Shown piece after piece: positions 3,261-54,776 of a DNA stretch of 64,000 nt. The position numbers and the translations under genes are program-made. How positions within the stretch are numbered: position 1 is the stretch's first letter; each line of letters opens with the position of its first letter. The stretch lies in the IMG/VR virus record IMGVR_UViG_3300034105_001970; one strand, written 5' to 3'. The notes below the pieces were generated by a model. It saw only the letters and a program-made list of their open reading frames with translations. It was not told the DNA's origin and did not search any database. The stretch comes from a virus.

Positions 3261-3263
3261 GTT

Positions 3264-5076: not shown

Positions 5077-5077
5077 T

Positions 5078-5704: not shown

Positions 5705-6186
5705 TGAATTGGATAATTTTCACAACCGAATGTAGTGGTAAAACAACATTTTGTTCACTAAACAATAATAAATTAAAAGATTATGATTTAGTGGATTGGG
5801 ATGTGATAAAAGCATTACCAAATGGTGAATATGAAAATGAAATATTATTAATAGATGTTATGTTAGAATTGGTTAATAAAGATAATCAGATTTATTTAAC
5901 AAATATATTTCCACCAAACTTTATATTAGAGTGTAAACATTATTATAAAAATATTAAATTTGGAATAATTAATTTGAAAGAAGAAGAATTAAAAATACAA
6001 ATTAAAAGTAGACATAACCCAAATTATAATTCAAATTACATTATTGAAAAAAATAATGAATTAAAAAAAATAGTTGATAAAAAAAATACATTTAAAAGTT
6101 TTAAAAGTTTTAAAGAATTTAAAGAATATTTTGAACCATCATTAATTAATATCAAACCGATGGTACAAAGAATAATAAGATTATGA
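5704..6186 (+). CDS. hypothetical protein with imperfect P-loop
   Basis: N-terminal IIFTTECSGKTTF resembles Walker A but lacks the first Gly; ATGA overlap with neighbours. Confidence 0.3.
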   Translation: MNWIIFTTECSGKTTFCSLNNNKLKDYDLVDWDVIKALPNGEYENEILLIDVMLELVNKDNQIYLTNIFPPNFILECKHYYKNIKFGIINLKEEELKIQIKSRHNPNYNSNYIIEKNNELKKIVDKKNTFKSFKSFKEFKEYFEPSLINIKPMVQRIIRL

Positions 6187-19856: not shown

Positions 19857-22001
19857 ATGAGTTGGTATGACAGTTTTAAGACGGGTACTTTAGATTATTT
19901 AACTAAAGGTTCGTACACTAGTAAAAAGAAAGAGAAAAAATCAGCGAGTTCATTTTGGGCTGATGAATGGAGTTCCTATGACACACCTACTACATATTGG
20001 GGTGGTGATACTTGGAAACCAAAAGAGTACAATAAGGTAGAAAGCAGTACTGCTGACCTTATTAAGTTGAATGCACATAGGAGAGCAATTGCTAACTTTG
20101 TGAACATTCTTACAAACAAAAACATTCCTGTAAAGTTTTCGCGTAAAGGTGATTCTTATACTGATGGTAAATCGGTAGTATTATCAGCTGAGGTTAAACC
20201 TGAAAAGTTTGATATCGCGGTAGGTTTGGCATTGCACGAAGCATCACACATTGTTCTTACGGACTTTGAATTAATGCCTGCTTATTCTGCACCAACCGAA
20301 ATGTTTAATAACTTTGCAAAAGCAGCGGGTTTAGATGTAAATGACCCTTCTTTTGATGGTACACAACATTATCGAAACAAAGAACAATTATTTGATGTAG
20401 TTAAATCATTGGTAAACTTTGTAGAGGATAGAAGGATTGACCAATATATCTACAATACTTGTCCAGGTTATAGAGACTATTATAGAGCATTGTATGATGA
20501 GTATTTCTATGATAAGACTATTGACAAAGGATTGATAAGTGATGAATATACGGATGAAACATTACAATCGTATATGTTCCGTATTATCAATATCACAAAT
20601 CAAAATACTGACCTTAACAAATTGAAAGGTTTGAAAGAAATCTACGAAACATTAGACCTTAAGAATATTAGTAGATTAAAAAATACAACCGATTCATTAG
20701 AGGTAGCAGAAAAGATTACCAACACTATCTTACAACATATCTTAGTTGATTTAAGTAAAGATGGTAAAGGTAAGGGTAATGGTGACCCTGCAGATGTAAA
20801 CGAAGCAGGTAATGAAACTGGAGCAGAGGCAGGTGATAAACAAAACGATGAAATGGGTGGTAGTGGTGGTGATGCACCTGTGATGGGTGAGAAAGGTGAC
20901 TCTACGAGTGGTGCTTCACAAACTGGTAATGGTAAAGATTTAATGAGTGATACTGCTAAGAAACAATTGGATAAACAAATCCAAAAGCAAAAGGACTTCG
21001 TTAATAACAATATCAAAAAGAAAGGATTAACTAAGAAAGAGGATGAAACCTTAGACCAAATGGCTGAGAGTGGAACTGAAATGCAATCCGTAGGTGATAC
21101 TAAATTAGAGAATGGTGGATATATTCAACCGGTTCAATGTATCGTATCTAAGAAAATGACCGAAGGATTGATGCAAGATAGTTCGTTCCCTTTCGCTAGT
21201 TTTTGGAATGATAAATGGAATAACTGGAATGCTGATACTTTACAAAGAGGTATCGTAATGGGTACTATTTTAGGTAAGCGTATTGCAGTTCGTAGTGAGG
21301 AAAGAGAAACAATCAATCCACGCCAAAAGAATGGTAGAATTGATAAGAGAATGGTAGCGGCATTAGGATATGATTATGTAAATGTATTCAGTACCAAAGA
21401 AGTAGATAGGTTTAAGAAAGTAATGTTGCACGTTACTATTGATGGTAGTGGTTCAATGAGTGGTAGTGTGTGGGATGATACATTAGCCGTAACAATTGCT
21501 ATTTGTAAAGCAGCATCAATGGTAAGTAACTTAAATGTACAAGTTTCTATCAGAGGTACGTGGGGTGATAAACCTTACATATGTATTGCGTATGATAGTA
21601 GATTTGATAAGTTTGAGAAAGTTAAGAGATTGTTTCCTGCATTACACGCCAATGGTACAACACCTGAAGGTTTATGTTATCAAGCGATACTTAAACATTT
21701 TGTAGAGAGCAACAAAGATATGGATTCTTATTTCTTAAACATATGTGATGGTGAGCCAACATTCTCAAATCAACAATGTTCTTATAGTGGTAGAAACGCT
21801 TTGTTACACACTAAGAAAATGGTAGGACAAATCAAAGATATGGGTATACAAGTTATGAGTTACTTTGTTGGTGGCAGTTCATATAGTAGTTCATCTGACA
21901 ACTTTAAAACAATGTACGGAAGTGACAGCCGTTTTATTGATGTTAAACAAATCGTTCCTATCATTAAAACAATGAATGAGCTTTTTATGAAAAAAGCGTA
22001 A
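19857..22001 (+). CDS. VWA-domain protein, CobT-like partner of MoxR-type AAA+ ATPase
   Basis: C-terminal MIDAS HVTIDGSGSMSG; central Gly/Asp/Lys-rich acidic low-complexity region; adjacent to the AAA+ gene. Confidence 0.6.
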   Translation: MSWYDSFKTGTLDYLTKGSYTSKKKEKKSASSFWADEWSSYDTPTTYWGGDTWKPKEYNKVESSTADLIKLNAHRRAIANFVNILTNKNIPVKFSRKGDSYTDGKSVVLSAEVKPEKFDIAVGLALHEASHIVLTDFELMPAYSAPTEMFNNFAKAAGLDVNDPSFDGTQHYRNKEQLFDVVKSLVNFVEDRRIDQYIYNTCPGYRDYYRALYDEYFYDKTIDKGLISDEYTDETLQSYMFRIINITNQNTDLNKLKGLKEIYETLDLKNISRLKNTTDSLEVAEKITNTILQHILVDLSKDGKGKGNGDPADVNEAGNETGAEAGDKQNDEMGGSGGDAPVMGEKGDSTSGASQTGNGKDLMSDTAKKQLDKQIQKQKDFVNNNIKKKGLTKKEDETLDQMAESGTEMQSVGDTKLENGGYIQPVQCIVSKKMTEGLMQDSSFPFASFWNDKWNNWNADTLQRGIVMGTILGKRIAVRSEERETINPRQKNGRIDKRMVAALGYDYVNVFSTKEVDRFKKVMLHVTIDGSGSMSGSVWDDTLAVTIAICKAASMVSNLNVQVSIRGTWGDKPYICIAYDSRFDKFEKVKRLFPALHANGTTPEGLCYQAILKHFVESNKDMDSYFLNICDGEPTFSNQQCSYSGRNALLHTKKMVGQIKDMGIQVMSYFVGGSSYSSSSDNFKTMYGSDSRFIDVKQIVPIIKTMNELFMKKA

Positions 22002-22022
22002 AAACACACTAAAACTTAACTA

Positions 22023-22035
22023 ATTGATTATCAAT
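22023..22035. promoter_or_regulatory. 13-nt perfect palindrome ATTGATTATCAAT (operator-like)
   Basis: Located 22 nt after the stop of the VWA gene; 21-nt context shared with 19148 copy. Confidence 0.4.
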
Positions 22036-22097
22036 GTGTTATACATTACCCTAAATGGATGTGTATAATGTGTTGATATTCAATAGGTTATAAATAG

Positions 22098-22130
22098 TTT
22101 TGGTAGTGTGGGCAGAATTTCGTATCTTTA
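22098..22130 (+). promoter_or_regulatory. Bacteroidota-type promoter
   Basis: TTTGGTAG -33, 21-nt spacer, TATCTTTA. Confidence 0.5.
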
Positions 22131-22176
22131 TGATATATCAAACAATAATTAAACAATAAACATTAAAAATTCAGTT

Positions 22177-23409
22177 ATGAGTAAAAAAGCAACACAAGAG
22201 TATGGTTACACAAATGAAGTGTACAAAGTAGAAAATCTTAAATCCCGTTTTAACTTAGTTAATACTGCGGGTGATGTATTAAGTAGTTCAGATTCTACAA
22301 TAGTAGGTAGTTCTTTACGAAAAAAAGCATCAGCACAAAATAAAGCAATTCGTGCGCATGTAAACAAAAACGGAGCTAAAAGCTATCGTATGGTAGAAAT
22401 GCAAGAATATACGGATATGTTGGTTAAGCCGATGAATACGGATATCGCTGAAACTATCGTAGAAAATCCAACGGAGCATAAAGATGTTATCGATTTCATT
22501 CATAAAGAGGGTATGGCGTTAAAACCTGCTAACTTAATTATGAACGAGTTGAAGTGGAAATATTTATTACGTTCAGCGGTTCGAGCGCGAAATATTATGA
22601 TGACAGGACCTGCGGGTAGTGGTAAGACAATGGCAGCTAAAGCATTAGTTGCGGCATTGAAAAGACCGTTTCATTACTTTAACTTAGGTGCGACGCAAGA
22701 CCCGAGGGCGGCATTAATTGGTAACACACACTTTAACAAAGCAAGTGGTACTTATTTTAGTGAGAGTGCATTCGTTAAAGCTATTAAGACACCTTACGCA
22801 GTTGTGTTATTAGATGAATTAAGTAGAGCTCATCCAGAAGCCGCTAATATCCTAATGACAGTGTTAGACCAAACACAAAGATACTTACGATTAGATGAGC
22901 AAGAAAATTCACCAATTGTTAAGGTGGCAGAAGGTGTTACCTTTATTGCAACTGCAAACATCGGTTCTGAATATACTGCAACGCGTGTAATGGATAGAGC
23001 ATTGTTAGATAGATTCGTGACAATTGAGGTAGATGTATTGAATGCTGAGCAGGAATATGAATTGTTAAAGATGTTATATCCTGATACGAATGATTACAAT
23101 TTGAAATCAGTAGCAGAGATTGCGGCACACACTAGAGACCAAATCAAAGGTGAGGCGGGTAAATTGACAACTGCTGTATCAACTCGTATTTCAGTAGAGA
23201 TGGCAGGTTTGTTGTATGATGGTTTCAGTTTGTTAGAAGCAGCTGAGGTAGCAATCTTCCCGTTCTATTCACAAGATGGTGGTATGGATAGTGAGCGTAC
23301 TTACATTAAGCAACTTATACAAAAATTCGTAGTAGATGAGAATGAAGGTGAAAAGTTATTCAACGAAGTGAAAGAGGAAGATGCGAATGACGATACTATT
23401 GTTTGGTAA
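22177..23409 (+). CDS. AAA+ ATPase, MoxR/CbbQ/CobS-like
   Basis: Walker A MMTGPAGSGKT, Walker B VVLLDELSRAHPEAANILMTVLDQ; pairs with upstream VWA gene. Confidence 0.7.
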   Translation: MSKKATQEYGYTNEVYKVENLKSRFNLVNTAGDVLSSSDSTIVGSSLRKKASAQNKAIRAHVNKNGAKSYRMVEMQEYTDMLVKPMNTDIAETIVENPTEHKDVIDFIHKEGMALKPANLIMNELKWKYLLRSAVRARNIMMTGPAGSGKTMAAKALVAALKRPFHYFNLGATQDPRAALIGNTHFNKASGTYFSESAFVKAIKTPYAVVLLDELSRAHPEAANILMTVLDQTQRYLRLDEQENSPIVKVAEGVTFIATANIGSEYTATRVMDRALLDRFVTIEVDVLNAEQEYELLKMLYPDTNDYNLKSVAEIAAHTRDQIKGEAGKLTTAVSTRISVEMAGLLYDGFSLLEAAEVAIFPFYSQDGGMDSERTYIKQLIQKFVVDENEGEKLFNEVKEEDANDDTIVW

Positions 23410-39008: not shown

Positions 39009-40118
39009 ATGAAATTAGAAACAATTTACAAAAAAACAAAGACCGGTGCAACGCAAGAATGGACAATTGAAGTAGTAGGTAATAAATACCGAACCCATAG
39101 TGGACAAGTTGGCGGTGCTATTACTACGAATGAGTGGACAATTTGTTATGGTAAGAATATTGGTAGAGCAAATGAAACTACGGATAAAGAACAAACGATG
39201 GCAGAGGCGGTAGCTAAACGAACTAAGAAATTAGAGAGTGGTTACTTTGAGAATATTAAACACATAAACAAAACACAATACTTTGAACCAATGTTAGCTG
39301 CAAAGTGGGAGGATTGTAAAGATAAAGTTACATATCCAATTTATTCGCAAGCTAAGTTAGATGGTATTCGTTGTATAGTGACAAAAGATGGTATGTTTAG
39401 CAGAAATGGTAAACCTATTCTTTCAGCGCAACATATCATGTATAGCTTATGGCATGTATTTGTAATGAATCCTGATTTGATATTAGATGGTGAGTTATAT
39501 GCCGATAAGTTCGCTAATGATTTCAATAAGATTGTATCTTTGGTTAAAAAAACAAAACCAACTAAAGAGGATTTAATTGAAAGTGAAAAAAGTATAGAGT
39601 ATCACATATACGATTTACCTAGTTCAGATAATAACTTTGTAAAAAGAATGTATGATTTAGGAATACTATTTGAAACATTTTCACAAGTAGGTAAGTATTG
39701 TAGAATAGTACAAACATATAAAGTTGATAATGCAGATATGGTTGAGGAATTATATGGTGGATATGTAGAACAAGGTTATGAAGGTCAAATCTTAAGAATA
39801 GATGGTAAGTATGAAAACAAACGAAGTAAGAATTTATTAAAACACAAATCGTTTGTTGATGATGAATATACTATCTTAGATATTGTAGAGGGTGAGGGTA
39901 ATAGAACCGGCACTGCTGGTTATATGGTATTTGAAACGATTGATGGAAAACCTTTCAAATCAAATGTAAAAGGAACATGGGATGAAACGGCTGAAATGTT
40001 AAAGAGTAAAAAGAAACTAATCGGTAAGCAAGCAACGATTAAGTATTTTAATTTAACACCTGATGGTATTCCCCGTTTTCCATATGTAATTAATATTGAT
40101 AGAAACGAATACGAATAA
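39009..40118 (+). CDS. ATP-dependent DNA ligase
   Basis: Motif I KLDGIR, motif III DGELY, motif IV EGQILR, motif V LLKHK, in the canonical order and spacing. Confidence 0.85.
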   Translation: MKLETIYKKTKTGATQEWTIEVVGNKYRTHSGQVGGAITTNEWTICYGKNIGRANETTDKEQTMAEAVAKRTKKLESGYFENIKHINKTQYFEPMLAAKWEDCKDKVTYPIYSQAKLDGIRCIVTKDGMFSRNGKPILSAQHIMYSLWHVFVMNPDLILDGELYADKFANDFNKIVSLVKKTKPTKEDLIESEKSIEYHIYDLPSSDNNFVKRMYDLGILFETFSQVGKYCRIVQTYKVDNADMVEELYGGYVEQGYEGQILRIDGKYENKRSKNLLKHKSFVDDEYTILDIVEGEGNRTGTAGYMVFETIDGKPFKSNVKGTWDETAEMLKSKKKLIGKQATIKYFNLTPDGIPRFPYVINIDRNEYE

Positions 40119-40121
40119 GTT

Positions 40122-40646
40122 ATGAGAAAGAAAATAATATTCATAGATGTAGATGGGCCTTTAGCGTGGGGAAATTGGGGTGATGGAAAGGTTATAATTG
40201 ATGAAGGAAATGTATCACCATTTACAATACCATATGCTTGGGATATACCTGAATGTGAAGCATTGAAAACTATATTAGATGAAACAAATGCTGAGTTAGT
40301 ATTGAGCTCAGATTGGAGAAATCATTTTTCATTTGACCAGATGCGTGCAATATTTCAACACTATGGAATACATCGTTCACATTTAATTGATACAACAACA
40401 TATCAATACCTGTGGGATAAGATGAGTAGATGTTCAAATGATTATATGAGAGCGGCACAAATAGCAAAGTGGGTTAAAGATAATAAGATTAGTAATTGGA
40501 TAGCAATTGATGATTTGAATGTAGCATTACACTTTAAGTTTATGAATATCCCACAATGGAGACACGTAAAAGTAAATGGTGAAATGCAATTCAAAGGTAA
40601 GTTAAGAAATAAGATTGATGAATGTATAACAAAATTAAATAGATAG
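40122..40646 (+). CDS. HAD-superfamily phosphatase (possibly nucleic-acid 3'-phosphatase partner of the ligase)
   Basis: IIFIDVDGPL motif I, LSSDW motif II, K...IAIDDLN motif III/IV. Confidence 0.45.
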   Translation: MRKKIIFIDVDGPLAWGNWGDGKVIIDEGNVSPFTIPYAWDIPECEALKTILDETNAELVLSSDWRNHFSFDQMRAIFQHYGIHRSHLIDTTTYQYLWDKMSRCSNDYMRAAQIAKWVKDNKISNWIAIDDLNVALHFKFMNIPQWRHVKVNGEMQFKGKLRNKIDECITKLNR

Positions 40647-41121: not shown

Positions 41122-41751
41122 ATGAATAAGTTAAAATTTGAATTAAAATACTTAATAAATCGTTTCAGTTGGTTGGGAATATTAAACTCACCATTCAAAC
41201 CATTTAAAGTTGGTTTCTATGCTGGTAAAATAGCAATAGGTGTTCCTTATTTCTTTCCTAGAAAATGGGTTAAAGGAAATAATAAACTGATAACTGCAGC
41301 GGTTACATCGGAAATAGCAACACAAAAGAAATACAATGAATTAAATCCTACGCATGCTCGTAAGATAAAATCTTTTGAGGAGTTATTTGAAGAAAAGAAA
41401 AACTATAACTTTGCAGTACCACTTAAAGTAGGATTCAGTTATTGTGGGTTGGGTTGGAAAATAAAGTGGACTGATACCGATTATAGATTTGAATGGAACC
41501 CTGTATTTTCGTTTGTGTTCTTTGGTTATCAAATAGCAATAACAATTTATAGTCCTTACCACGACCACTATTGGACAAGTTGGTTATATTATAAAAACCA
41601 TACCGATAAAACTAAATCAAAGAGAGAGAGAATAGAGCAATGTAAAAAAGAATTTGGACAAAAATGGGTTCGTAGTAAAGATGGCAAAGATGAGGTTGTG
41701 GATTATTACGAATGTATTTTGAAAAGAAAATATATAACAAATGAATTATAA
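41122..41751 (+). CDS. hypothetical protein
   Basis: 209-aa ORF. Confidence 0.4.
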   Translation: MNKLKFELKYLINRFSWLGILNSPFKPFKVGFYAGKIAIGVPYFFPRKWVKGNNKLITAAVTSEIATQKKYNELNPTHARKIKSFEELFEEKKNYNFAVPLKVGFSYCGLGWKIKWTDTDYRFEWNPVFSFVFFGYQIAITIYSPYHDHYWTSWLYYKNHTDKTKSKRERIEQCKKEFGQKWVRSKDGKDEVVDYYECILKRKYITNEL

Positions 41752-42091
41752 TAAAATAATCATAGGTATCTTATTTGGTATCTTAGGACAGATTGGTACA
41801 TTCTTACAATTACAAGGTAGTTACAAGTATGGTTGGTATGAGAAGTATCAATGGTTGGTTATATTAGCATCATTACCACTAGGATGGGTTTACATACAAA
41901 GTGTAAACTCATTCATAGCTGGGTTTGGTGGGCAGATATGGCCTTCTCGTTTGTTAGGATTTGGTATCGGTGTAATTATATTTACCTTGATGTCACACTT
42001 TTTATTCAAAGAGCCATTAAGTTTAAAGAATGCATTATGTTTAGGATTGGGATTTGTAATAGTAGGTATTCAATTATTTGTTAAAAATTAG
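41741..42091 (+). CDS. integral membrane protein (4 TM)
   Basis: Hydrophobic helices; embedded track ORF 41851..42084 is in another frame and was rejected. Confidence 0.4.
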   Translation: MNYNKIIIGILFGILGQIGTFLQLQGSYKYGWYEKYQWLVILASLPLGWVYIQSVNSFIAGFGGQIWPSRLLGFGIGVIIFTLMSHFLFKEPLSLKNALCLGLGFVIVGIQLFVKN

Positions 42092-42092
42092 T

Positions 42093-42638
42093 ATGAGAAT
42101 ATTAATTATTGCTAATATGAGGAGTGGTTCTACAACTTTATTAAAATGGTTGGGAATAGAGTTGGGGTACAAAACAATAAACGAATTACATAATCCACTA
42201 TTTCCGGTTGAGTTTGAGTTAAATAGTAATAACTTTATTGTTAAAGAAATACATCATCATATTAAAGATATACCAAATTATATATCAAAGTTTGATAAAG
42301 TAATAACACTAACACGTACTGATACATTTGATAGTGCAGTTAGTTTATTATATTGTGATGAAAAACCAAATTATGATTATCATTCAAAATATAAAATAAA
42401 TGATAAATGGATTTCAGACAGAATATATGAAATACATAGAATAGAAAGAGAATTTATTAAACAAAATAAAGATATCGTTAGTATAGATGCATTTCATATA
42501 ACATATGAAGGCATTTTTAAAACAAAAACCGAACTTAAAAAATTATGTGAATATCTAAATATAGATGTTAATAATTTAAAAGCAAGTGAATTGTTAAATA
42601 ATAATAACAGGTATCGTAATAATAATAAAATGATATGA
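42093..42638 (+). CDS. sulfotransferase-like protein (Stf0/Sulfotransfer_3-like)
   Basis: MRILIIANMRSGSTTL (PAPS 5'-phosphosulfate-binding-like RSGST) and TRTDTFDSAVSLLY 3'-PB-like; track start TTG 42078 replaced by ATG 42093. Confidence 0.4.
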   Translation: MRILIIANMRSGSTTLLKWLGIELGYKTINELHNPLFPVEFELNSNNFIVKEIHHHIKDIPNYISKFDKVITLTRTDTFDSAVSLLYCDEKPNYDYHSKYKINDKWISDRIYEIHRIEREFIKQNKDIVSIDAFHITYEGIFKTKTELKKLCEYLNIDVNNLKASELLNNNNRYRNNNKMI

Positions 42639-43846
42639 AAAATATAGTATTAGGAATTATATTAGTTATAGCGGTTAGTTGTAATAAAACTATACCGAGT
42701 GTGATACCACCAATTGTAGTAACACCGATTGTATTAACACCGACTGAATTACCAAAAATTATATATTATGGTAAGACATCATATGAATTAAAAAATACAA
42801 AAAACTTTATCAATATTGATTCACTTAGAACAAACCTTGGTATTAGGAATATTGGAAAATACAATGGTAATAGTAATAATGGTTGGGTATATGTAGATAT
42901 GAATAACGATGGATTAGAAGATATTTTTTATCCATACACATCGGATGGCGAATTTAATTCAAAACCAGATGTGTTTATAAATAAAGGTAAAACATATATT
43001 AGTGATAATAGTATGTTACCGAGTGACTACACCGGTAATCAAACAACAAGAAAAACAATTGTTGGTGATTTTAATAATGATAGTTTACCGGATTTGTTTT
43101 TATGTAATCATGGATATGAAAGTAATAACTATTGGCCAGGCGAAAACAACACATTGTTATTAAGTGACAAAAAAACAGGCAAATATAAAATAGGAACATT
43201 ACCTGATATTGGTAAATCCTTTTGGCATGGGGGAGCAAGTGGTGACTTAAATAAAGATGGTAATATTGATATCGTTGTAACTGCCGGAAATAGCATTAAA
43301 GTTTTATATGGTAGTGGCAATGGTAGTTTTAATGCAACCGATTGGAAATATAAAGGAGCATCCGGTTATTTAACAATTGAAATATTAGATGTAAATGAAG
43401 ATAATCAATTGGATATTATAATGACTGGGTTTGAAGGATTCCCAAATTCAGATAGGTATTCTAAATCTACTATATTTTGGAATAATAATAATGAATTTAG
43501 TAACAATACAATTATATGTGAACCAAATATAAATGGATGGGCATTGGTATTGGATATTGTAGCAGCCGACATCGATAATGATGGTACAACTGAAATAATA
43601 TTAAATAGAACAATCGATAGTGGTACTAATTGGTATAATGGATTTCAATTAAGTGTGTATAAAACAACTGATAATTATAAAACGTTTAAAGAAAACAATA
43701 TTATAACATATCAAACTAATTCAAAAGCATGGATGTCCAAATTAAATTTATATCAGAAAGATAATGTTTATTATTTAGATGGTATTACTATAAATGGAAA
43801 AATATATCATTGGAAACAAGACCCTATAACTAAAACATTTAATTAA
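42635..43846 (+). CDS. lipoprotein with FG-GAP / VCBS-type beta-propeller repeats
   Basis: Lipobox VIAVSC; five D-x-N-x-D-G-x-x-D/E loops (DMNNDGLEDIF, GDFNNDSLPDLF, GDLNKDGNIDIV, LDVNEDNQLDII, ADIDNDGTTEII). Confidence 0.5.
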   Translation: MKNIVLGIILVIAVSCNKTIPSVIPPIVVTPIVLTPTELPKIIYYGKTSYELKNTKNFINIDSLRTNLGIRNIGKYNGNSNNGWVYVDMNNDGLEDIFYPYTSDGEFNSKPDVFINKGKTYISDNSMLPSDYTGNQTTRKTIVGDFNNDSLPDLFLCNHGYESNNYWPGENNTLLLSDKKTGKYKIGTLPDIGKSFWHGGASGDLNKDGNIDIVVTAGNSIKVLYGSGNGSFNATDWKYKGASGYLTIEILDVNEDNQLDIIMTGFEGFPNSDRYSKSTIFWNNNNEFSNNTIICEPNINGWALVLDIVAADIDNDGTTEIILNRTIDSGTNWYNGFQLSVYKTTDNYKTFKENNIITYQTNSKAWMSKLNLYQKDNVYYLDGITINGKIYHWKQDPITKTFN

Positions 43847-44220: not shown

Positions 44221-45378
44221 ATGACATTTTATTACGATTCTATTTATGGTTTAGATTTTAAATATTTTGAATCAATTGGATATAATCTTATAGAATTACA
44301 ACATAATGATTTTAGTTACATTGGTAATCTTAAAGATAATGATGTATTATTTACTACATTAGATACAATTGATAATATAAACAAATCGGTAAATCCAAAT
44401 ATAAAATTAAATATATTTTTGTTTATTAAACATGAATATTGTAATGAACATAGGCGTAAAGCAATTATAGAAAGTAGAAATACAAATCATACTATATATT
44501 TCTTAACAACGCATTTAGATGTGTATAGTATTGAAAATGATTTATCATTTAAAAATAGATGTTATCCATTTACAAACTTATTTTCAAAAGTAGCCTATAT
44601 ACCAAACAATAATAGAACAAAGAAGTTTAATTTCTTTAATAGGTCTATAAATTTACGAAGACTTAAAATATTTGAATTGCTAAAAAAAGCAGATATTCAA
44701 TTAAGCCAATGTTATTATACATTTGGTAATATAATAAAAAAAGATACGTTTGGTAATCTTTCTACAATACAAGATTTTATTAATTATAGAAATAGACCGG
44801 GTGGGGGACGTAGTGGTAATGATGATTTAATAATTGATACCGAATACTTAAATCAATTTGTAAATGAGTTTTTTATATATGAGAACAAAGATGCGGTAGC
44901 ATTAGGACAGATACAAAGCTCAGATACAAATGATATGTATAATACTATTAATACAAACTCATTAGATTCATATATTTCATTTACTATTGAAAGTAGTGGT
45001 GATAGTGGTGATGATTTAAGGTTGACAGAAAAAACAATTAGATCTTGGTTATGTAAAAATATATTCTTATCTTTACAATGTAATGGGTTTAACTCAGCAT
45101 TAAGAGGATATGGAATCGAAACATTTGAAGATGTATTTGGATTAGAAATTGGATGGGATGATAATAAAACGGAAACTGAAAGAATAGAAATATTTGTAGA
45201 TGCTTTAAAACGAATCAATGAATTATCAATTGATGAAGTTAAAGCAATATATGAATCGGATAATGTTCAACAAAGATTAGAAAAGAATTATAAATTTATA
45301 ATGGAAGGCTTTAATCCTACCAATACAATATTAGAAATAGAAAAATTAATTGGTTATGAAAATAATGTTCCTAAGTGA
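44221..45378 (+). CDS. hypothetical protein, possible glycosyltransferase with FucT-like motif
   Basis: ISFTIESSGDSGDDLRLTEKTIRSWL resembles GT10 FENS...TEK motif; similar size to 27230/28479 proteins. Confidence 0.35.
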   Translation: MTFYYDSIYGLDFKYFESIGYNLIELQHNDFSYIGNLKDNDVLFTTLDTIDNINKSVNPNIKLNIFLFIKHEYCNEHRRKAIIESRNTNHTIYFLTTHLDVYSIENDLSFKNRCYPFTNLFSKVAYIPNNNRTKKFNFFNRSINLRRLKIFELLKKADIQLSQCYYTFGNIIKKDTFGNLSTIQDFINYRNRPGGGRSGNDDLIIDTEYLNQFVNEFFIYENKDAVALGQIQSSDTNDMYNTINTNSLDSYISFTIESSGDSGDDLRLTEKTIRSWLCKNIFLSLQCNGFNSALRGYGIETFEDVFGLEIGWDDNKTETERIEIFVDALKRINELSIDEVKAIYESDNVQQRLEKNYKFIMEGFNPTNTILEIEKLIGYENNVPK

Positions 45379-46060
45379 CACTCATGGTAGACACCTTGAG
45401 ATTACTGAATTATATGGTGAATTGCCGTATGTAGATATTATTGTACATAGTGGGGATTGTACTCGTTATGGTGAATTTGAAGAAACTGATTTATTTATGA
45501 ATTGGTTTAGTAAACAAAATGCAAAACATAAAGTATTAGTAGCGGGCAATCATGATTTTGTATTACAGCAAACCGATAGGCGTAATTGGTTATTGGCAAA
45601 TAATTATGGAGTTACCTATTTAGAAGATAGTTTTATAAACATCGATGGGTTAGGTATCTATGGTAGTCCATGGTCTCCTGTATTTGGTATGTGGGCATTT
45701 ATGAAACAAAGAAATGCAGAATTAGATTCGGTATGGCAAAAAGTACCAACTGACGGAAGTGTAGATTTGTTAGTGACACATACACCTAGATATGGTAGAT
45801 TTGATGTGAGTGTGAGAGGCAACTATAATGTAGGATGTGAGATGTTAGCGTATAGAATCAATGACATACACCCTAAGGTCCACGTATTTGGACACATACA
45901 TGAATGTGGTGGAATGATTAAAGAGGAAACCGAAGTGCCGTTAGAGGGTATGATAAGTTTGAATGCATCGTTATTAAACATTCGTTATGTATTAGCTAAT
46001 CCTATTTGGATATGGGACACTGAAACAAATGATTGGAATTCAATAGAAATAAAAGAATAA
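45350..46060 (+). CDS. calcineurin-like metallophosphoesterase
   Basis: LSDTHG, GDCTRYG, AGNHDF, GHIHE motifs in order. Confidence 0.8.
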   Translation: MVMKIMFLSDTHGRHLEITELYGELPYVDIIVHSGDCTRYGEFEETDLFMNWFSKQNAKHKVLVAGNHDFVLQQTDRRNWLLANNYGVTYLEDSFINIDGLGIYGSPWSPVFGMWAFMKQRNAELDSVWQKVPTDGSVDLLVTHTPRYGRFDVSVRGNYNVGCEMLAYRINDIHPKVHVFGHIHECGGMIKEETEVPLEGMISLNASLLNIRYVLANPIWIWDTETNDWNSIEIKE

Positions 46061-46205: not shown

Positions 46206-46877
46206 ATGAAAAATAAACTTTGGGTATTTGGCTGTTCGTTTTCAACCGGAATGAATTTGATTCAACCTACTGATGAAGATACATTAAGAATTAGTTGGCC
46301 GTATGTATTGGCGGATAAATTAGATTTAGAATTAGTAAATAGTGCACGTCCTGGACAATGTAATTGGGTATCTATATTGCAATTCATAGATAGGAGAGAT
46401 GAAATTCAGCCAGGCGATAAGGTTGTATTTGAATTTACATTCTTTGATAGGTATAATATTTATCCAACAAAAGCACAATTAATAGATTTAGAAGCTTATT
46501 TTAGTAGACATTCTAATGGTGGAACATTTGCAGATAATTTAGTAGAAATGAGGAAGGTTAATTATAATTGGTTTAATAAACAAGTAAACAATTGGTGTAT
46601 TAAAAAAAAAATATCAATTTACTATTGGAGTGCAGAAGGACAAGTTCATTCAGATTTTAAAAAATACAAAGAGATTATTACTTTTATACCTGCACCCAAT
46701 TCAACAAACGAATTTACAAACTATTCGTTTTATACAAAGTGGCAAGACCAATTAGAGGAACAACATATTATAGAACCGAATGGTAATATTGATAAACATT
46801 TTAATGAGTTAGGACATCAACGAATGGCTAATCATTTTTTTGAATATATTAATACTTATAGGAAATCGTTATTATGA
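46206..46877 (+). CDS. SGNH/GDSL-hydrolase-like paralogue
   Basis: LWVFGCSFSTGMN block I variant (Asp to Cys), DKHFNELGHQRMANHF block V-like; C-terminal 20 codons identical to next gene. Confidence 0.5.
   Translation: MKNKLWVFGCSFSTGMNLIQPTDEDTLRISWPYVLADKLDLELVNSARPGQCNWVSILQFIDRRDEIQPGDKVVFEFTFFDRYNIYPTKAQLIDLEAYFSRHSNGGTFADNLVEMRKVNYNWFNKQVNNWCIKKKISIYYWSAEGQVHSDFKKYKEIITFIPAPNSTNEFTNYSFYTKWQDQLEEQHIIEPNGNIDKHFNELGHQRMANHFFEYINTYRKSLL
46818..46877 (+). repeat. 60-bp direct repeat, copy 1 (3' ends of tandem SGNH genes)
   Basis: CAACGAATGGCTAATCATTTTTTTGAA(T/C)ATATTAATACTTATAGGAAATCGTTATTATGA; second copy 47588-47647; 1 mismatch. Confidence 0.7.
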
Positions 46878-47647
46878 ATAAGTTATGGATTTTCGGTGAT
46901 AGTTTTTCACATGGGCACGGCTTTAATAATTCTGACCCATTCTATGAAGTTACTTTATCCGATGATATTGATAAAAGATATTGGTGTGAAATAGTAGCAC
47001 ATGAATTAAATTTGGAACTACATAATCACGCTAGAGTAGGTGCATCCAATGACTATATATTGGACAACATTTTAAATAACGCAGATAAGATTGGAGAAAA
47101 CGATTATGTTGTAATCCAAGCTACATATTATAGTAGATTTGATGTTCCACACAAAAGCTCATTTAGTTTTTTACATACAATTGTTAGATATGATGATAGT
47201 AGACATATTAACGTAAACTTAATAGGTGATGATGATATGACTGACCATAAACACGAAACATTAGTAGATTTTGCAGTTTATTTTGCAGGATTACCGGCAT
47301 ACAAACACAGACAACTTAATAGATTTGAAAAATTAATAAATTTACTAAAAACAAAAAATGTTGTATTTTGGTGTTTAGAATCTCCAGATTCTCCAAATAT
47401 ACATGAAATTGAAATTCTAAAAAAACCATACTTTCTTAAATTTGAGAACAAATATATAGGTGGAGAGGATTGTTTCAAAGAACACAAAGCAACTATTTCC
47501 GATGAAAGTAATGGTAAGATGCAAGATGGACATATTGGTGTAAAAGGACAACAAATCATGTCAGTAGAAATACTAAAAAAGTTTAACCAACGAATGGCTA
47601 ATCATTTTTTTGAACATATTAATACTTATAGGAAATCGTTATTATGA
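46874..47647 (+). CDS. SGNH/GDSL-hydrolase-like paralogue
   Basis: LWIFGDSFSHGHG (GDS-x-x-xG), QDGHIGVKGQQIM (DGxH). Confidence 0.55.
   Translation: MNKLWIFGDSFSHGHGFNNSDPFYEVTLSDDIDKRYWCEIVAHELNLELHNHARVGASNDYILDNILNNADKIGENDYVVIQATYYSRFDVPHKSSFSFLHTIVRYDDSRHINVNLIGDDDMTDHKHETLVDFAVYFAGLPAYKHRQLNRFEKLINLLKTKNVVFWCLESPDSPNIHEIEILKKPYFLKFENKYIGGEDCFKEHKATISDESNGKMQDGHIGVKGQQIMSVEILKKFNQRMANHFFEHINTYRKSLL
47588..47647 (+). repeat. 60-bp direct repeat, copy 2
   Basis: See 46818-46877. Confidence 0.7.
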
Positions 47648-48375
47648 AAGTTTTAGTTATCGGTGATAGTTGTACTGATGTATTTGTATATGGTTATTGT
47701 AAAAGATTATGTCCCGAAGGACCTGTGCCAATATTTGAACCGAGTAGAACAATTACCAATATGGGTATGAGTGGTAATGTAGTAGCTAATCTTAAATCGT
47801 TGGGAGCTGAGAAAGTTGAGTTGGTTACTAACAAAGAACAAATTACAAAGACTAGATATGTAGAGGAAAAAGCAAATCATATGATTATCAGAATTGATAG
47901 TAATGATAAGGTTAGTAATTCATTTGATGTAAAAAGAGTTCCATTCAATGATTATGATGCAGTTATTGTAAGTGATTATGACAAAGGATTTCTATCATTA
48001 TCAGATTTGAAATTGATTAGTGATTCACATCCATTAACTTTTATAGATACAAAGAAACCATTATCAGCAGAAATGCGTAATTATACATTCATTAAGATAA
48101 ATGAAGTTGAGTGGGAAAATTGTAAAGGACAGGAATACGAAATGTGGCGAGAAAGATTAATTATAACAATGAGTGAACGAGGTGCAATGTATGATGGTAT
48201 TACATATCCGGTTAACAACGATATTGAGGTTAGAGATTTGAGTGGTGCAGGTGATACCTTTATGGCTTCATTAGTAGTTAGTTATTTAAAAACAAAAAGT
48301 ATAGAAGTTAGTATTGAATACGCAAATGATTGTGCAACAAAAGTTGTACAAAAACGTGGTGTAGTTACATTGTAA
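47644..48375 (+). CDS. PfkB-family sugar kinase, RfaE domain I / HldA-like (heptose 7-phosphate kinase family)
   Basis: VLVIGDSCTDVFVYGYCKRLCPEGPVPIF aligns with RfaE-I N-terminus (ILVVGD...SPEAPVPV); DLSGAGDTFMASLV anion-hole/GAGD motif. Confidence 0.7.
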   Translation: MKVLVIGDSCTDVFVYGYCKRLCPEGPVPIFEPSRTITNMGMSGNVVANLKSLGAEKVELVTNKEQITKTRYVEEKANHMIIRIDSNDKVSNSFDVKRVPFNDYDAVIVSDYDKGFLSLSDLKLISDSHPLTFIDTKKPLSAEMRNYTFIKINEVEWENCKGQEYEMWRERLIITMSERGAMYDGITYPVNNDIEVRDLSGAGDTFMASLVVSYLKTKSIEVSIEYANDCATKVVQKRGVVTL

Positions 48376-48694: not shown

Positions 48695-49426
48695 ATGGTT
48701 ACACAAAATAAATTATGGTGCTTCGGTGATTCGTTTACCGCAGGTGATGGGTGTATTCGGTCACCTAAAGAAAACCCATATTCACCAACTACGATTTCGT
48801 ATAGAAAATATTTAAACAAACAGGATGGAGAGGAAATTCTAATCTATCCTGATTATGTGTCTAACCATTTCAATTTAGAATTAATCAATACAGCTAGTGG
48901 TGGTGCATCAAATGAAATGATATTTGATAATGTATTTACACATATAAAAGATATAAAGAAAGATGATTATATTATAATTGGAATATCTTATTTTGAAAGA
49001 TTTGATGTTTTCATAAATAATATATTATCACCAACTAACATAAATAGTATATCAACAACATCGGATATTGTATTTCAAAATAATGCTTTAAGTAGACAAG
49101 GATTATTAGAAATTGTAAACAATAGAAATAATAAAGTATTTAAAGATAGATTGATTCGACAAATCAAAGCAGTAAAATATTTATTAAATTCGATATGTGA
49201 TAATGTATGTATATGGACACATGATAATGATATATTAGATGGTGTAGATACCGACGTATTTTTAATACCAGATAAATATAAAAAATTTAGTTCATTTGTA
49301 TATGATAATAAAATGGCATTAGCACAAGAAACAAATGGTGAGGTTCCCGATGGACATTTTGGTGCACCCGGTCACAAACTTTGGGCAGATATTATAATAA
49401 AATATTTTGAAAATGGAACAAAATAA
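48695..49426 (+). CDS. SGNH/GDSL-hydrolase-like paralogue
   Basis: LWCFGDSFTAGDG and PDGHFGAPGHKLWADII. Confidence 0.55.
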   Translation: MVTQNKLWCFGDSFTAGDGCIRSPKENPYSPTTISYRKYLNKQDGEEILIYPDYVSNHFNLELINTASGGASNEMIFDNVFTHIKDIKKDDYIIIGISYFERFDVFINNILSPTNINSISTTSDIVFQNNALSRQGLLEIVNNRNNKVFKDRLIRQIKAVKYLLNSICDNVCIWTHDNDILDGVDTDVFLIPDKYKKFSSFVYDNKMALAQETNGEVPDGHFGAPGHKLWADIIIKYFENGTK

Positions 49427-50090
49427 TATTTGGATATTTGGATGTTCACATTCTACTACTATTTGGAAAGATGAAGCAAAAACCGATGGTATAAAACCAT
49501 ATGGAAAATATTTAAGTGAATGGTTTGATTTAAAATATAATCAACCGGATAAGAGTGGACAAGGTAATGATAGTATTGTTACCGAAATCTTTAAAAATAT
49601 CAATAACATAAAAAAAGATGATTTACTAATAGTACAATTTACACATTTTAGTAGGTCCGTTTGGTATGATACACAGCAAAAAGAAATATACAACGGTGCA
49701 TGGGCAGAACGTAAAGGAATTAATCCAAATCCAAATGATATTAATAATGAAAGTTGGTATAAAATTACAGACCTAAAATCACAACATCCAATAATACAAA
49801 CACATATTTTCTTAAAAGAATTAAGTAAATTGATTGGATTTAAATATTATGTGTTTTTCTATGAAGATTGGATGTGTAAAGATTACGAATACTTTTTTAG
49901 AGAGGATGTAAATTCAAAAGTTACAATAAAATTTGGTGATGAACAATTTAATACATTGGGTAGATACACTAAGCATTATAAATTAACAACTTTGGCGGAA
50001 AGTGGTGAAATGCAAGATGGTCATATGAGTACGGAATCACATAGACGAGTTGCAGAAATGATACACAAATACATAAATGAAAATGGATAA
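49407..50090 (+). CDS. SGNH/GDSL-hydrolase-like paralogue
   Basis: IWIFGCSHSTTI and QDGHMSTESHRRVAEMI. Confidence 0.5.
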   Translation: MKMEQNNIWIFGCSHSTTIWKDEAKTDGIKPYGKYLSEWFDLKYNQPDKSGQGNDSIVTEIFKNINNIKKDDLLIVQFTHFSRSVWYDTQQKEIYNGAWAERKGINPNPNDINNESWYKITDLKSQHPIIQTHIFLKELSKLIGFKYYVFFYEDWMCKDYEYFFREDVNSKVTIKFGDEQFNTLGRYTKHYKLTTLAESGEMQDGHMSTESHRRVAEMIHKYINENG

Positions 50091-50871
50091 GTTATACATA
50101 TATGGATGTTCACATAGTGCCGGCAATCTATTAGGATATTCACACTTTGAAGATCCAGGATTACCTAGAATAAAGAATGATATTAATTTTATGGAAACTG
50201 ACTATACCAAATGGTTAGGTAGAAAGGGAATGCCATTTTTTGAAATAATAGCAAATGAATTGAACTTAGATTGGATATTAAGAGCAGAAGGTGGTGATAG
50301 TAATTCACAACAATTTAAAAAGCTATTAAAAGACCTACCAAATATAAAAGAAAATGATGTTGTATTATTTCAATTAACACATTATCATAGATTTGAAGTT
50401 CCGTATAAAAACAATGAAGGAAAGTGGGAAACTACTGCATTTCAAGCCGGCGGTAGTTTAAAATATGATAATGATAAATATCGTCAATTTTATATGGCAC
50501 ATTTAGATTTTGAAGATTGGATATCGATAAATTCTGTTGTAATAATATTATCATTATTAAATTACATTAAAAGTAATGTAACTAAAAATGTATTTTTATG
50601 GAGTTATCCAAATATAGAGCAGTGTATAAAAGAAAATACATCTATATTAAATTTTCCTAATTTAATTAAATTTGAATGTGACAGAGGAATTGTAGAAACG
50701 GCATATGAATGTAGTAATCATATAGATTGGAATACTGATTTGATTATTGAATTTGAAACTAATAAAATAGTAAAAGATTCACATTTTGGAGAAACTGGAC
50801 ATAAATTTATAGCCAAAAACATACTTAATTACATAAATCATAATACTTATATAAAAGAAAAAGGAGATTAA
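50077..50871 (+). CDS. SGNH/GDSL-hydrolase-like paralogue
   Basis: LYIYGCSHSAGN and KDSHFGETGHKFIAKNI. Confidence 0.5.
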   Translation: MKMDKLYIYGCSHSAGNLLGYSHFEDPGLPRIKNDINFMETDYTKWLGRKGMPFFEIIANELNLDWILRAEGGDSNSQQFKKLLKDLPNIKENDVVLFQLTHYHRFEVPYKNNEGKWETTAFQAGGSLKYDNDKYRQFYMAHLDFEDWISINSVVIILSLLNYIKSNVTKNVFLWSYPNIEQCIKENTSILNFPNLIKFECDRGIVETAYECSNHIDWNTDLIIEFETNKIVKDSHFGETGHKFIAKNILNYINHNTYIKEKGD

Positions 50872-52977: not shown

Positions 52978-53170
52978 TATGGAAAAACATTACGCAAAAG
53001 AAATAATAGCATGGGCAGAGGAAGCTAAAGAAACATTATTAATTCGTAAAGAAATAATATTAGATGATGATTTAACCGATGAACAATTAGGTGCTATTGT
53101 TAGAATAATGTATCGTGCAAAAGTAAGAGCAGAAAATGATTCAATTGAAAGATGTAAAAAATTTATATGA
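52958..53170 (+). CDS. hypothetical small protein
   Basis: 70-aa ORF. Confidence 0.3.
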   Translation: MINGLINMEKHYAKEIIAWAEEAKETLLIRKEIILDDDLTDEQLGAIVRIMYRAKVRAENDSIERCKKFI

Positions 53171-53994
53171 CAAACAAACATAATATAGAAATCGTATTTG
53201 CAACCGGATGTTCACATAGTGCAGGTGGCGGATTAGAAACTATTAAGTATGCAGACGATAAGGTAACATTAGTACGTGATATCTACAAAGAAAAATACAA
53301 TGTATGGTGGGATAATCAATTAGAAGTTACATATGCTAGTAGATTAGCAGATATGCTAGGATGTAAGGTAGAAAACAAAGCAGCAAGTGGTGGTGGAACT
53401 GGTAGAGCAGTTAGAGAGGCATTTGATTTTGTAAAAAGAAATTGGGATAAAAAAGATAAGTTACTATTGTTATTAGAATTACCCGCATACTTTCATAGAT
53501 TAGATATGTATTCAACCAATCTAAATAGTTGGGTAGTAGTAAATCATTCAGTTAATGAGAATGGTGTAAGAGACCATATATACGCAACACGTGGGTATTA
53601 TATGGATGGGCACCATGGTGATTTTAAAAATACAAATAAAGATGGTGCATTAGAAAAATACTTAGATAACTTTATAGATTATGATATTGAAGTTGCTAAA
53701 ATGAATAGAGAGGCAGAGATGTTATTGACATTTTTAAAATACCATAAAATTAAATTTATATATTTTGAAGGTGGTCAAAAACTAAAAGGTGTTTTGGATA
53801 AATCATTATTATCAAACGAATTAAATATAGAAGGGCATACTGATTTTCATCATTGGATAATGAAAAACGGATATACTATAAAGGATGAATTAGGTGCTGA
53901 TATATTAAACGATTTACATCCTGGTTATTTCGGCAACATAAAGTTTGCTGAGTTTTTATATGGATATGTAAATGAAAATTGGGATATATTATAA
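53167..53994 (+). CDS. SGNH/GDSL-hydrolase-like paralogue (divergent)
   Basis: IVFATGCSHSAGGG block I variant; C-terminal LHPGYFGNIKFAEFL. Confidence 0.45.
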   Translation: MTNKHNIEIVFATGCSHSAGGGLETIKYADDKVTLVRDIYKEKYNVWWDNQLEVTYASRLADMLGCKVENKAASGGGTGRAVREAFDFVKRNWDKKDKLLLLLELPAYFHRLDMYSTNLNSWVVVNHSVNENGVRDHIYATRGYYMDGHHGDFKNTNKDGALEKYLDNFIDYDIEVAKMNREAEMLLTFLKYHKIKFIYFEGGQKLKGVLDKSLLSNELNIEGHTDFHHWIMKNGYTIKDELGADILNDLHPGYFGNIKFAEFLYGYVNENWDIL

Positions 53995-54776
53995 TGAAAG
54001 GATATTTTTTACCAGATTATAATATTGCACTACAATTTACTAATAAAACAGGTAGTTTACAAATGATAAATACCTTTATGTTATTTTTTAATTACAATAA
54101 TATAAAATATGAGGAGGCTACTATATTATATAATTCACCTAATCCATTTGATGAAAAAACGCAATTTTATATTTTTACAAGAAATCCAATAGATAGATTT
54201 ATTACAACGTATAATTGGTTTATGAATTCAATTGATGGACCGGAAAATGTTTTAAATTTAAAAAAGAAATATAACATACCTGATATAGAATCATATATCA
54301 ATAACTATACTAAGATAATGTACGAAATAGATGATACACATTATCAACCACAAATATTTGAAATTTTAGCGTTTGAACGAAATAAGTTTAATTTTGATTC
54401 AAAATCAATAAAAGATTCTCTTTTTAAAGGATATAATACTAATTATACATTTCTAAATATGGAAATGATTTCAACATTTTTAGAAAATTTTACAAATACA
54501 TATCAATATTCGCATGGTAATCTTTTAGATTTATCGTTACCTAAAACGGATTACGAATGCAAACTAATATTAGATTTAATACCAGAATTTGTATCTATGG
54601 ATATAGAATCAAAAAAACATTTTAATTTTTTATATTTGGCAATTAAATCAATTTTAGACAAAGGTCATCATCATACTAATAGCAGAATTGAATTAGATAC
54701 TCCAAAACTCCGTGCAATTATAGGAAAAATACCTATTATTAAAATAGAAACACAATTATATGGATATTCTTTATAG
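53979..54776 (+). CDS. carbohydrate-sulfotransferase-like protein (Sulfotransfer_2-like)
   Basis: FTNKTGSL (5'-PSB-like K-T-G-S) and FYIFTRNPIDRFITTY matching the CHST 3'-PB motif F-x-F-V-R-D-P-F-E-R-L-V-S-A-Y. Confidence 0.45.
   Translation: MGYIIMKGYFLPDYNIALQFTNKTGSLQMINTFMLFFNYNNIKYEEATILYNSPNPFDEKTQFYIFTRNPIDRFITTYNWFMNSIDGPENVLNLKKKYNIPDIESYINNYTKIMYEIDDTHYQPQIFEILAFERNKFNFDSKSIKDSLFKGYNTNYTFLNMEMISTFLENFTNTYQYSHGNLLDLSLPKTDYECKLILDLIPEFVSMDIESKKHFNFLYLAIKSILDKGHHHTNSRIELDTPKLRAIIGKIPIIKIETQLYGYSL

Follow-up and report, generated by a model that had tools for sequence, protein, structure and literature searches.

The open reading frame at positions 42093–42638 of the window, the whole 64-kb stretch of viral DNA that was analyzed, lies on the plus strand and encodes a protein of 181 residues. 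Its ATG at 42093 is one base past the TAG stop of the upstream gene, and its TGA stop (42636–42638) overlaps the ATG of the next gene at 42635 in an ATGA arrangement. A mechanical list of open reading frames also offers a TTG start at 42078; since the homologs all begin with MRILI or MKILI, the ATG at 42093 is taken as the true start. Public assemblies record the 181-residue sequence from this ATG exactly (in 37 blocks, on contigs of up to 95 kb), and the TTG-extended version is absent from them. The JGI sample series that contain the exact protein appear to be freshwater-lake metagenomes. That no real gene exists at this position is ruled out, both by the recurrence of the exact protein across many samples and by conserved homologs that reach down to 25–30% identity. 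The first-pass annotation had reported this reading frame and two motif strings within it, all of which were located in the window: LIIANMRSGSTTLLKWLG corresponds to residues 4–21 of the protein and TRTDTFDSAVSLLY to residues 74–87. The gene and its neighbors are as follows:

41741–42091, plus strand: SMR/EmrE-like membrane protein, 116 aa, directly upstream of the target (weak match to Pfam Multi_Drug_Res, E 0.063; several homologs are named 'EmrE-like' by JGI)
42093–42638, plus strand: target ORF, minimal Stf0/NodH-like sulfotransferase-fold protein, 181 aa
42635–43846, plus strand: FG-GAP repeat protein carrying a signal peptide of the lipoprotein type (Pfam FG-GAP_3, E 4e-22; lipobox-like N-terminus ...ILVIAVSC)
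44221–45378, plus strand: 385-aa protein, homolog of a 389-aa protein of the related viral cassettes described below and a probable glycosyltransferase (hhalign to the cluster-10 alignment A5, probability 90%, E 1.4e-6)
45350–46060, plus strand: calcineurin-like metallophosphoesterase (Pfam Metallophos, E 1.5e-15)
46206–47647, plus strand: two SGNH/DUF6071-like paralogs (46206–46877 and 46874–47647; BLAST cluster 3)
47644–48375, plus strand: RfaE domain I-like D-glycero-beta-D-manno-heptose-7-phosphate kinase of the PfkB family (Pfam PfkB, E 4e-13; NCBIfam TIGR02198, E 1.1e-33, under the curated cut-off)
48695–50871, plus strand: three SGNH/DUF6071-like paralogs (48695–49426, 49407–50090 and 50077–50871; cluster 3; weak match to Lipase_GDSL, E 3.6e-4)

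The window has a GC content of approximately 29–30% and a strongly positive GC skew. Open reading frames of at least 100 aa fall nearly all on the plus strand, as does every one treated as a gene, and no tRNAs were found in the 64 kb. Genes for a DNA ligase, a HAD_SAK_2 phosphatase, CobS/CobT-like AAA proteins, GP88, a PD-(D/E)XK nuclease, a UvdE-like endonuclease and an SPFH protein were identified, and matches to PHROGs are present. The ligase and AAA protein are closest to those of uncultured huge phages (LR756511, LR756508) and Microcystis phage Mel-JY01, and a syntenic 249-kb contig holds a cluster member that is at least 90% identical. From the single coding strand, the PHROG matches, the huge-phage relatives and the 249-kb contig, the replicon is concluded to be a large, probably jumbo, uncultivated phage, which upholds the phage origin assigned by the first-pass annotation. 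The link that the same annotation made to marine Flavobacteriia and sulfated polysaccharides was left without support, and no host inference was obtained.

In a related 339-kb (jumbo-phage) contig, the SMR-like and FG-GAP genes are adjacent with no sulfotransferase gene between them. Thus, the target appears to be an accessory insertion in the window lineage, and its immediate neighbors tell little about its substrate. The SMR-like gene has hundreds of close homologs, and the ones inspected lie on phage-like contigs. The glycan context of the target consists of the cassette-protein homolog at 44221–45378, the RfaE-like heptose kinase, the SGNH-like paralogs (six in the window, five of which are within 8 kb downstream of the target) and genes for GT4 and GT2 glycosyltransferases at 1857–7939. 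The cassette-protein homolog contains a ...TEKT... motif which we take to resemble that of GT10 fucosyltransferases. Further downstream, the ORF at 53167 aligned collinearly with SGNH-like cluster 17, though not significantly (E 0.21).

A word-indexed search with the 181-residue protein returned 14 relatives, and an exhaustive profile search returned 1,519 family representatives at E ≤ 1e-3 (458 at E ≤ 1e-10). These approximately 1,500 representatives are clusters at 50% identity, and nearly all of them are 170–210 aa in length. An alignment of 126 members taken from the profile-search relatives (alignment A2) was used to assess conservation; it proved too diverse for use in peptide-pattern scans. 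The family is apparently restricted to viral contigs and was seen here only in uncultivated ones, with 46 IMG/VR loci retrieved. A megablast search of GenBank phages with the 12 kb around the gene gave no matches, nor did a tblastn search of 50,697 GenBank phage records with three family members. A scan of GTDB genomes by a single narrow peptide pattern produced 22 pattern matches and no relatives, which is weak evidence for an absence of the family from cellular genomes.

Residues that are invariant or nearly so among the 126 aligned members are R10, G12, E31, P32, K51, D68, R75, S84, Y100, Y138 and E139. Mapped onto the window, the conserved segments are:

42120–42134, plus strand: R10-S11-G12-S13-T14, putative 5'-phosphosulfate-binding loop between strand 1 and helix 1, from conservation (R10 in 125 of 126, G12 in all 126) and alignment with RSGS of NodH and RSGST of Stf0
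42183–42185, plus strand: E31, candidate catalytic base at the end of strand 2, a role predicted from conservation (116 of 126, with Asp in 4) and alignment with the Glu of NodH 'DEIF'
42243–42245, plus strand: K51, near-invariant lysine (121 of 126), located on strand 3 by the structure model
42315–42344, plus strand: R75-T-D77-T-F-D-S-A-V-S84, putative 3'-phosphate-binding strand-turn-helix, from conservation (R75 in 125 of 126, Asn or Asp at 77 in 117, S84 in 124) and a spacing as in Stf0 and NodH
42501–42509, plus strand: T137-Y138-E139, 'YE' motif after strand 134–137 (Y138 in 125 of 126, E139 in 118)
42609–42617, plus strand: R173-Y174-R175, conserved basic C-terminal motif (Arg or Lys at 173 in 117 of 126, R175 in 103), where confidence in the model is low

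Judged from this conservation across 126 members, a chance match of the two motif strings is excluded. A conserved catalytic base, which the first-pass annotation expected of a true sulfotransferase, has its candidate in E31. The 'YE' motif presumably resembles the YEDL motif of Sulfotransfer_1/3 and Stf0. It may be speculated that the C-terminal basic motif provides an extra phosphate contact.

Scans of the 181-residue protein against Pfam, PHROGs and NCBIfam gave no meaningful match. The sulfotransferase models PF13469, PF09037 and PF00685 did not match it at E ≤ 1, and it reaches the gathering threshold of none of them. As a result, the Pfam check proposed in the first-pass annotation (PF13469/PF00685) failed for the window protein, with sub-threshold matches on some homologs only. 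When the 126 members were scanned singly, Sulfotransfer_3 matched 15 of them (best E 1e-4), Stf0 matched 11 (best E 5.5e-4), Sulfotransfer_1 matched 6 (best E 5.2e-5) and Sulfotransfer_5 matched one; kinase-type models were far fewer (AAA_18 on 3, AAA_28 on 2 and SKI on 1). All of these matches are under the curated thresholds, and the sulfotransferase models are the commonest among them.

Searches of PDB sequences with the single sequence or a 14-sequence profile gave noise or sub-significant N-terminal matches only, and the 126-sequence profile was needed for matches to emerge. With that profile, the top match was the LPS sulfotransferase NodH (E 5.2e-4), aligned over two segments: one from the RSGS loop to the downstream Glu ('ihEpF'/'hdEiF') and the other at 'LtRen...aiS'. 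The same two motifs align with Stf0 at E 0.59. Within the second segment, R75 is followed by Asp or Asn at +2 and Ser at +9, which is the spacing found in HRPDVVSQAVS of Stf0 and ERENKLASYSS of NodH.

An AlphaFold2 model calculated from the 14-sequence alignment was confident, with a pLDDT of 89.3 and a pTM of 0.86. A Foldseek search with the model placed Stf0 on top (E 3.8e-5) and sulfotransferases in all of the first 19 matches, so that the closest solved structures are sulfotransferases. In the model, R10-S-G-S-T14 is positioned between strand 2–7 and helix 13–24, as a 5'-phosphosulfate-binding loop lacking the Walker-A lysine would be, and the R75 and S84 pair is arranged as a 3'-phosphate-binding segment, with R75 after strand 69–74 and S84 in helix 78–90.

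The fold search by itself fails to split sulfotransferases from their P-loop kinase relatives. As an alternative to sulfate transfer, the protein might be a nucleotide-binding enzyme that resembles the P-loop deoxynucleoside or shikimate kinases and phosphorylates a nucleoside or a sugar. Deoxyguanosine kinase matches the A2 profile at E 1.4e-3 over N-terminal residues 1–71 only, a stretch that includes the 'hEP' segment and in which its GK aligns with the family G-S, and a few members weakly match AAA_18, AAA_28, SKI or dNK. The dNK/SKI kinases also have in common with the target the ancestral fold, a similar size (150–205 aa) and an 'EP' segment after strand 2. However, the Walker-A motif GxxxxGK[ST] with its invariant lysine is missing in all 126 members; the lysine position, S13 in the target, is occupied by Ser in 62, Gly in 59, Thr in 4 and Ala in 1. 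An Arg stands two residues ahead of the Gly, as in the sulfotransferase [KR]-S-G-[ST]-[ST] loop, and Stf0 and NodH, unlike kinases, contain segments that correspond to R75...S84 and Y138-E139. Sulfotransferases also align over 20–40 residues more than kinases in the fold search, and the family gene co-occurs with an APS kinase gene in related viruses. The profile alignments, together with the absence of the Walker lysine and the presence of an R...S motif of the sulfotransferase type, favor a sulfotransferase, and a kinase is considered very unlikely.

The target protein very probably belongs to the sulfotransferase superfamily. The Stf0-like assignment of the first-pass annotation agrees with this placement, as the 5'-phosphosulfate- and 3'-phosphate-binding segments align with NodH and Stf0 and sulfotransferases come first in the fold search. 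Its concern that the protein might be placed among P-loop kinases is answered in part: sulfotransferases rank first, with kinases close behind in both the fold and profile searches. Since the protein falls outside the PF09037, PF13469 and PF00685 thresholds, it is best treated as belonging to a new, smaller family of the superfamily.

Compared to characterized sulfotransferases, the target is approximately 60–100 residues shorter. NodH (PDB: 9VKI, 'LPS sulfotransferase NodH'), the best profile match, has in common with the target the RSGS loop with the Glu downstream of it, as well as the R...S segment; however, it has 264 residues, the alignment is limited to two short segments, and no genes for chitin-oligosaccharide synthesis are present here. 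The trehalose 2-sulfotransferase Stf0 of Mycobacterium smegmatis (PF09037; PDB: 1TEX) was crystallized as chains of 239–247 residues from a construct of 287, and its relation to the target is under every curated threshold. The acceptor of Stf0 is trehalose, whereas nothing points to trehalose for the target, and the target family, in contrast to Stf0, was found in viral contigs only. The cytosolic sulfotransferases (Sulfotransfer_1; SULT7A1, PDB: 5X2B; SULT1B1, PDB: 2Z5F) are approximately 100 residues longer. They presumably use a catalytic His where the target family keeps Glu, and what we take to be their C-terminal RKGxxGDW motif is missing in the target.

Phage-borne sulfotransferase genes are already known as a kind. 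Genomes of OM43 phages and of Synechococcus phage S-SRM01 are reported to contain Sulfotransfer_3 genes, which were annotated by Pfam only and whose function was stated to be unclear (PMC10580990). Thus, the remark in the first-pass annotation that sulfotransferases are rare in phages is true only in part. Like the target, the OM43-phage and S-SRM01 proteins (PF13469) are products of phage sulfotransferase superfamily genes without an assigned function; they pass the Pfam model, however, and the target does not. As the target family fails this model and has no tblastn matches among the GenBank phage records, it is regarded as separate from, and smaller than, the phage Sulfotransfer_3 proteins.

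On balance, the favored reading of the ORF at 42093–42638 is a cytoplasmic, minimal PAPS-dependent sulfotransferase of the Stf0/NodH type that belongs to a large unannotated family, with a glycan sugar as the likeliest acceptor. From the conserved residues, the R10-S-G-S-T14 loop would hold the 5'-phosphosulfate of PAPS, R75 and S84 would hold the 3'-phosphate, and Y138 would contact the adenine. E31 may serve as a general base that deprotonates the acceptor hydroxyl, which would then attack the sulfur in line, and the leaving PAP could be stabilized by K51 and R10. A role for K51 in stabilizing the leaving group is assumed by analogy with Lys106 of cytosolic sulfotransferases. A tblastn search found no APS kinase in the 64-kb window, so PAPS would have to be supplied by the host or through a gene located beyond the window; some relatives have their own APS-kinase gene beside the sulfotransferase.

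The same residues bear on another explanation, in which the protein is a degenerate, non-catalytic representative of the fold that binds PAPS, PAP or another nucleotide, and either sequesters or senses the host sulfur nucleotide pool or acts as a subunit of another enzyme. The protein is very small for the fold and is without recognizable acceptor-binding insertions, and residue 32, next to the candidate base, is Leu where 116 of the 126 members have Pro. Set against this, R10, E31, K51, R75, S84, Y138 and E139 are all retained in the window protein and in the family, as would be anticipated if selection were maintaining an active enzyme. A degenerate protein is considered unlikely, and the target is probably an active PAPS-dependent enzyme.

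The gene neighborhoods of related viruses provide an independent line of evidence. Since the 46 IMG/VR loci were retrieved by two peptide patterns, they do not sample the family at random. Their ORFs were called and clustered, and grouping of the loci by their family proteins at 90% identity gave 23 lineages. The genes found within 8 kb of the family member are:

APS kinase: 5 of 23 lineages, plus one partial match at a locus edge
2OG-Fe(II) oxygenases: 17 of 23 lineages, with one to five genes each
SGNH/DUF6071-like gene: 17 of 23 lineages
Twitch-type radical-SAM gene, usually directly upstream: 15 of 23 lineages
Second sulfotransferase-like family (PRCASTS...IKRDxxDRxIS): 13 of 23 lineages
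Small HxGH adenylyltransferase and DUF2061 pair: 12 of 23 lineages
Carbamoyltransferase: 6 of 23 lineages
Calcineurin-like metallophosphoesterase, near the family member: 4 of 23 lineages

APS kinase catalyzes the PAPS-forming step. In one locus, a homolog of the target (P0010, 32% identical) lies 6.5 kb downstream of an APS-kinase gene, the product of which matches PF01583 and TIGR00455 (E 4.5e-20) and displays, by eye, the GSGKT, DGDxxR and SPYxxxR signatures. Homologs of the APS kinase were found in only 7 of the 50,697 GenBank phage records, some of which are doubtful. The co-localization in 5 of 23 lineages gives indirect support for PAPS binding and sulfate transfer by the family. A 126-aa HxGH protein beside the viral APS kinase was considered as a possible ATP sulfurylase; it matches NMN adenylyltransferases instead.

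The related cassettes also hold a 998-aa GT4/methyltransferase protein and SGNH-like genes. In most of them, the gene after the sulfotransferase belongs to cluster 3, a representative of which weakly matches DUF6071 and Lipase_GDSL_2. The second sulfotransferase-like family (cluster 5) aligned with A2 at an hhalign E of 5.8e-4. A tblastn search of GenBank phages with the cassette radical-SAM protein gave no matches. Glycan-related and radical-SAM cassettes have already been described in the variable regions of aquatic myophages (PMC7029224).

The composition of these cassettes raises a serious alternative, though one of fairly low probability, in which the enzyme is a sulfotransferase with a non-carbohydrate acceptor. 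In that case, sulfate could be transferred to tyrosine, serine or hydroxylated residues of a peptide or protein, much as by TPST or RaxST, or to a small secondary metabolite, and the radical-SAM and 2OG-Fe(II) oxygenase enzymes of the cassette would make this acceptor. The radical-SAM and 2OG neighbors present in most other lineages would fit such an acceptor as well as a glycan, and the small size of the protein suggests a small or simple acceptor site. In the window, however, no radical-SAM or 2OG gene lies near the target among the genes scanned, and the neighbors are glycan-related. No precursor-peptide gene was identified, and the cassettes themselves also encode carbamoyltransferase and glycosyltransferases. 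We assume that the sulfotransferase, carbamoyltransferase and APS kinase of the related viruses parallel NodH, NodU and NodPQ in Nod-factor decoration, and the carbamoyltransferase/glycosyltransferase combination is likewise presumed to match this set. With the window neighborhood in mind, a glycan sugar is the most likely acceptor of the target enzyme. The sulfate would go onto a hydroxyl group of this sugar, in a glycan or glycan precursor assembled or altered by the phage in the course of infection; host envelope polysaccharides, LPS and glycans associated with the virion are possible examples. The carbohydrate acceptor named by the first-pass annotation is plausible from the neighboring genes.

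The window contains a second gene of the same fold:

53994–54776, plus strand: second sulfotransferase-fold protein, of a different family, 260 aa, with invariant N17-K18-x-G20-S21, R63...T71 and H116

The mechanical start of this ORF is a TTG at 53979, and its homologs start at the ATG at 53994. The first-pass annotation, which listed the ORF by the TTG, took it for a second member of the target family. While the sulfotransferase fold stands, the shared family does not: a BLASTP comparison with the target gave a spurious 20-residue match only (E 0.05), and the ORF has a separate set of homologs, one of which is 100% identical and lies on a 95-kb contig. With cassette cluster 5, only the R...S segment of the ORF aligns (hhalign E 0.01, probability 4%), which was not accepted as evidence of membership. 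Searches of PDB sequences with profiles of the 53994 family and of cluster 5 gave no matches. The window phage therefore holds two sulfotransferase-fold genes from different families, mirroring the two families in the related cassettes.

A broader proposal can be put forward tentatively, and with less confidence than the assignment of the target itself. The approximately 180-residue family may be the transferase of an undescribed virus-encoded sulfation pathway. In related uncultivated large phages, its partners would be the APS kinase, the small HxGH adenylyltransferase, the DUF2061 membrane protein and the second sulfotransferase-like family, along with the radical-SAM, 2OG-Fe(II) oxygenase, carbamoyltransferase, glycosyltransferase and SGNH-like genes of the cassettes. 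Such a gene set could produce PAPS and use it to build a heavily decorated, sulfated product, either a glycan or a peptide, at the host envelope or on the virion. The window phage would then carry a reduced version, consisting of the two sulfotransferase-fold genes and the glycan genes, that operates on host PAPS.

To our knowledge, sulfation by phages is essentially unstudied. The new elements are the family of approximately 180 residues, which current models do not detect, the minimal size of its members, the linkage to APS kinase and a distribution that seems confined to viral contigs. Activity of the family would mean that large aquatic phages invest activated sulfate in the modification of a glycan or other product during infection. 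Such activity would bear on host-surface remodeling, superinfection exclusion, virion decoration and viral use of the host sulfur pool, and the target would be among the smallest sulfotransferase scaffolds, which would make it useful for enzymology.

The sulfotransferase gene (42093-42638, +) is inserted between two genes that are conserved neighbors, as is evident when window 41741-43846 is compared with a 339-kb phage-like contig (L061:6001-7748) in which an SMR/EmrE-like membrane gene and an FG-GAP lipoprotein gene are adjacent. At E <= 0.01, homologues of the SMR/EmrE-like membrane protein (115/116 aa) make up some 500 clusters, and the best 120 of these show 68-97% identity to it.

The gene that follows the sulfotransferase in the majority of cassettes from related viruses (17 of the 23 lineages, grouped at 90% identity of the family protein) belongs to the SGNH/DUF6071-like family, six paralogues of which are present in the single 64-kb window. 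A further open reading frame, 53167-53994, carries an N-terminal GCSHSAG motif that resembles these paralogues; its homology to the family was not significant. A block of glycosyltransferase genes lies at 1857-7939.

Selected genes of the window
1857-3260 and 3264-4553, +, two GT4-like glycosyltransferases
5078-5704, 6183-6824 and 6821-7939, +, three GT2-like glycosyltransferases
11654-12415, 46206-46877, 46874-47647, 48695-49426, 49407-50090 and 50077-50871, +, SGNH/DUF6071-like paralogues
19857-23409, +, CobT-like and CobS/MoxR-type AAA gene pair
39009-40646, +, ATP-dependent DNA ligase, then HAD_SAK_2 phosphatase domain
47644-48375, +, PfkB family, match to RfaE domain I (D-glycero-beta-D-manno-heptose-7-phosphate kinase, E 1.1e-33)

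From its sequence match, 47644-48375 is predicted to be a phage-borne gene of the LPS-core heptose pathway. The protein covers only positions 97-304 of the 315 in the model, and the kinase appears to be truncated at its N-terminus. The HAD_SAK_2 phosphatase type is known from "Swiss Army Knife" RNA-repair proteins, and together with the DNA ligase it may form a nucleic-acid repair pair. The CobT-like gene weakly matches a PHROG annotated "cobalamin biosynthesis". The nearest relatives of the CobS/MoxR-type AAA protein are from an uncultured 484-kb phage and Microcystis phage Mel-JY01; T4-like cyanophages and pelagiphages are not among the closest. Across the whole window (1-64000), nearly all open reading frames of at least 100 aa, and all those treated as genes over the 64 kb, are on the + strand. 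The GC skew is strong, uniform and positive (0.17-0.27), GC content is approximately 29-30%, and no tRNA genes were found in 1-64000.

In related viral loci (L004:3200-4202; also L017, L045, L048 and L052/L053), three genes occur in a fixed order.

Gene trio in the L004:3200-4202 region
Gene 1, APS-kinase-like, truncated, 144 aa
Gene 2, HxGH adenylyltransferase, 126 aa
Gene 3, DUF2061 membrane protein, 71 aa

The best matches of the HxGH protein are archaeal NMN adenylyltransferases. The trio may serve as a compact viral module for sulfate activation, or it may carry out unrelated nucleotide chemistry.

The last gene of the related cassettes encodes a 998-aa fusion of GT4, GT9 and Methyltransf_21 domains, after which comes a collagen-repeat/Peptidase_S74 tail-fibre-like gene (L004:11884-14880 and L005:13358-15142). 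Thus, the sulfotransferase cassette adjoins host-recognition genes.
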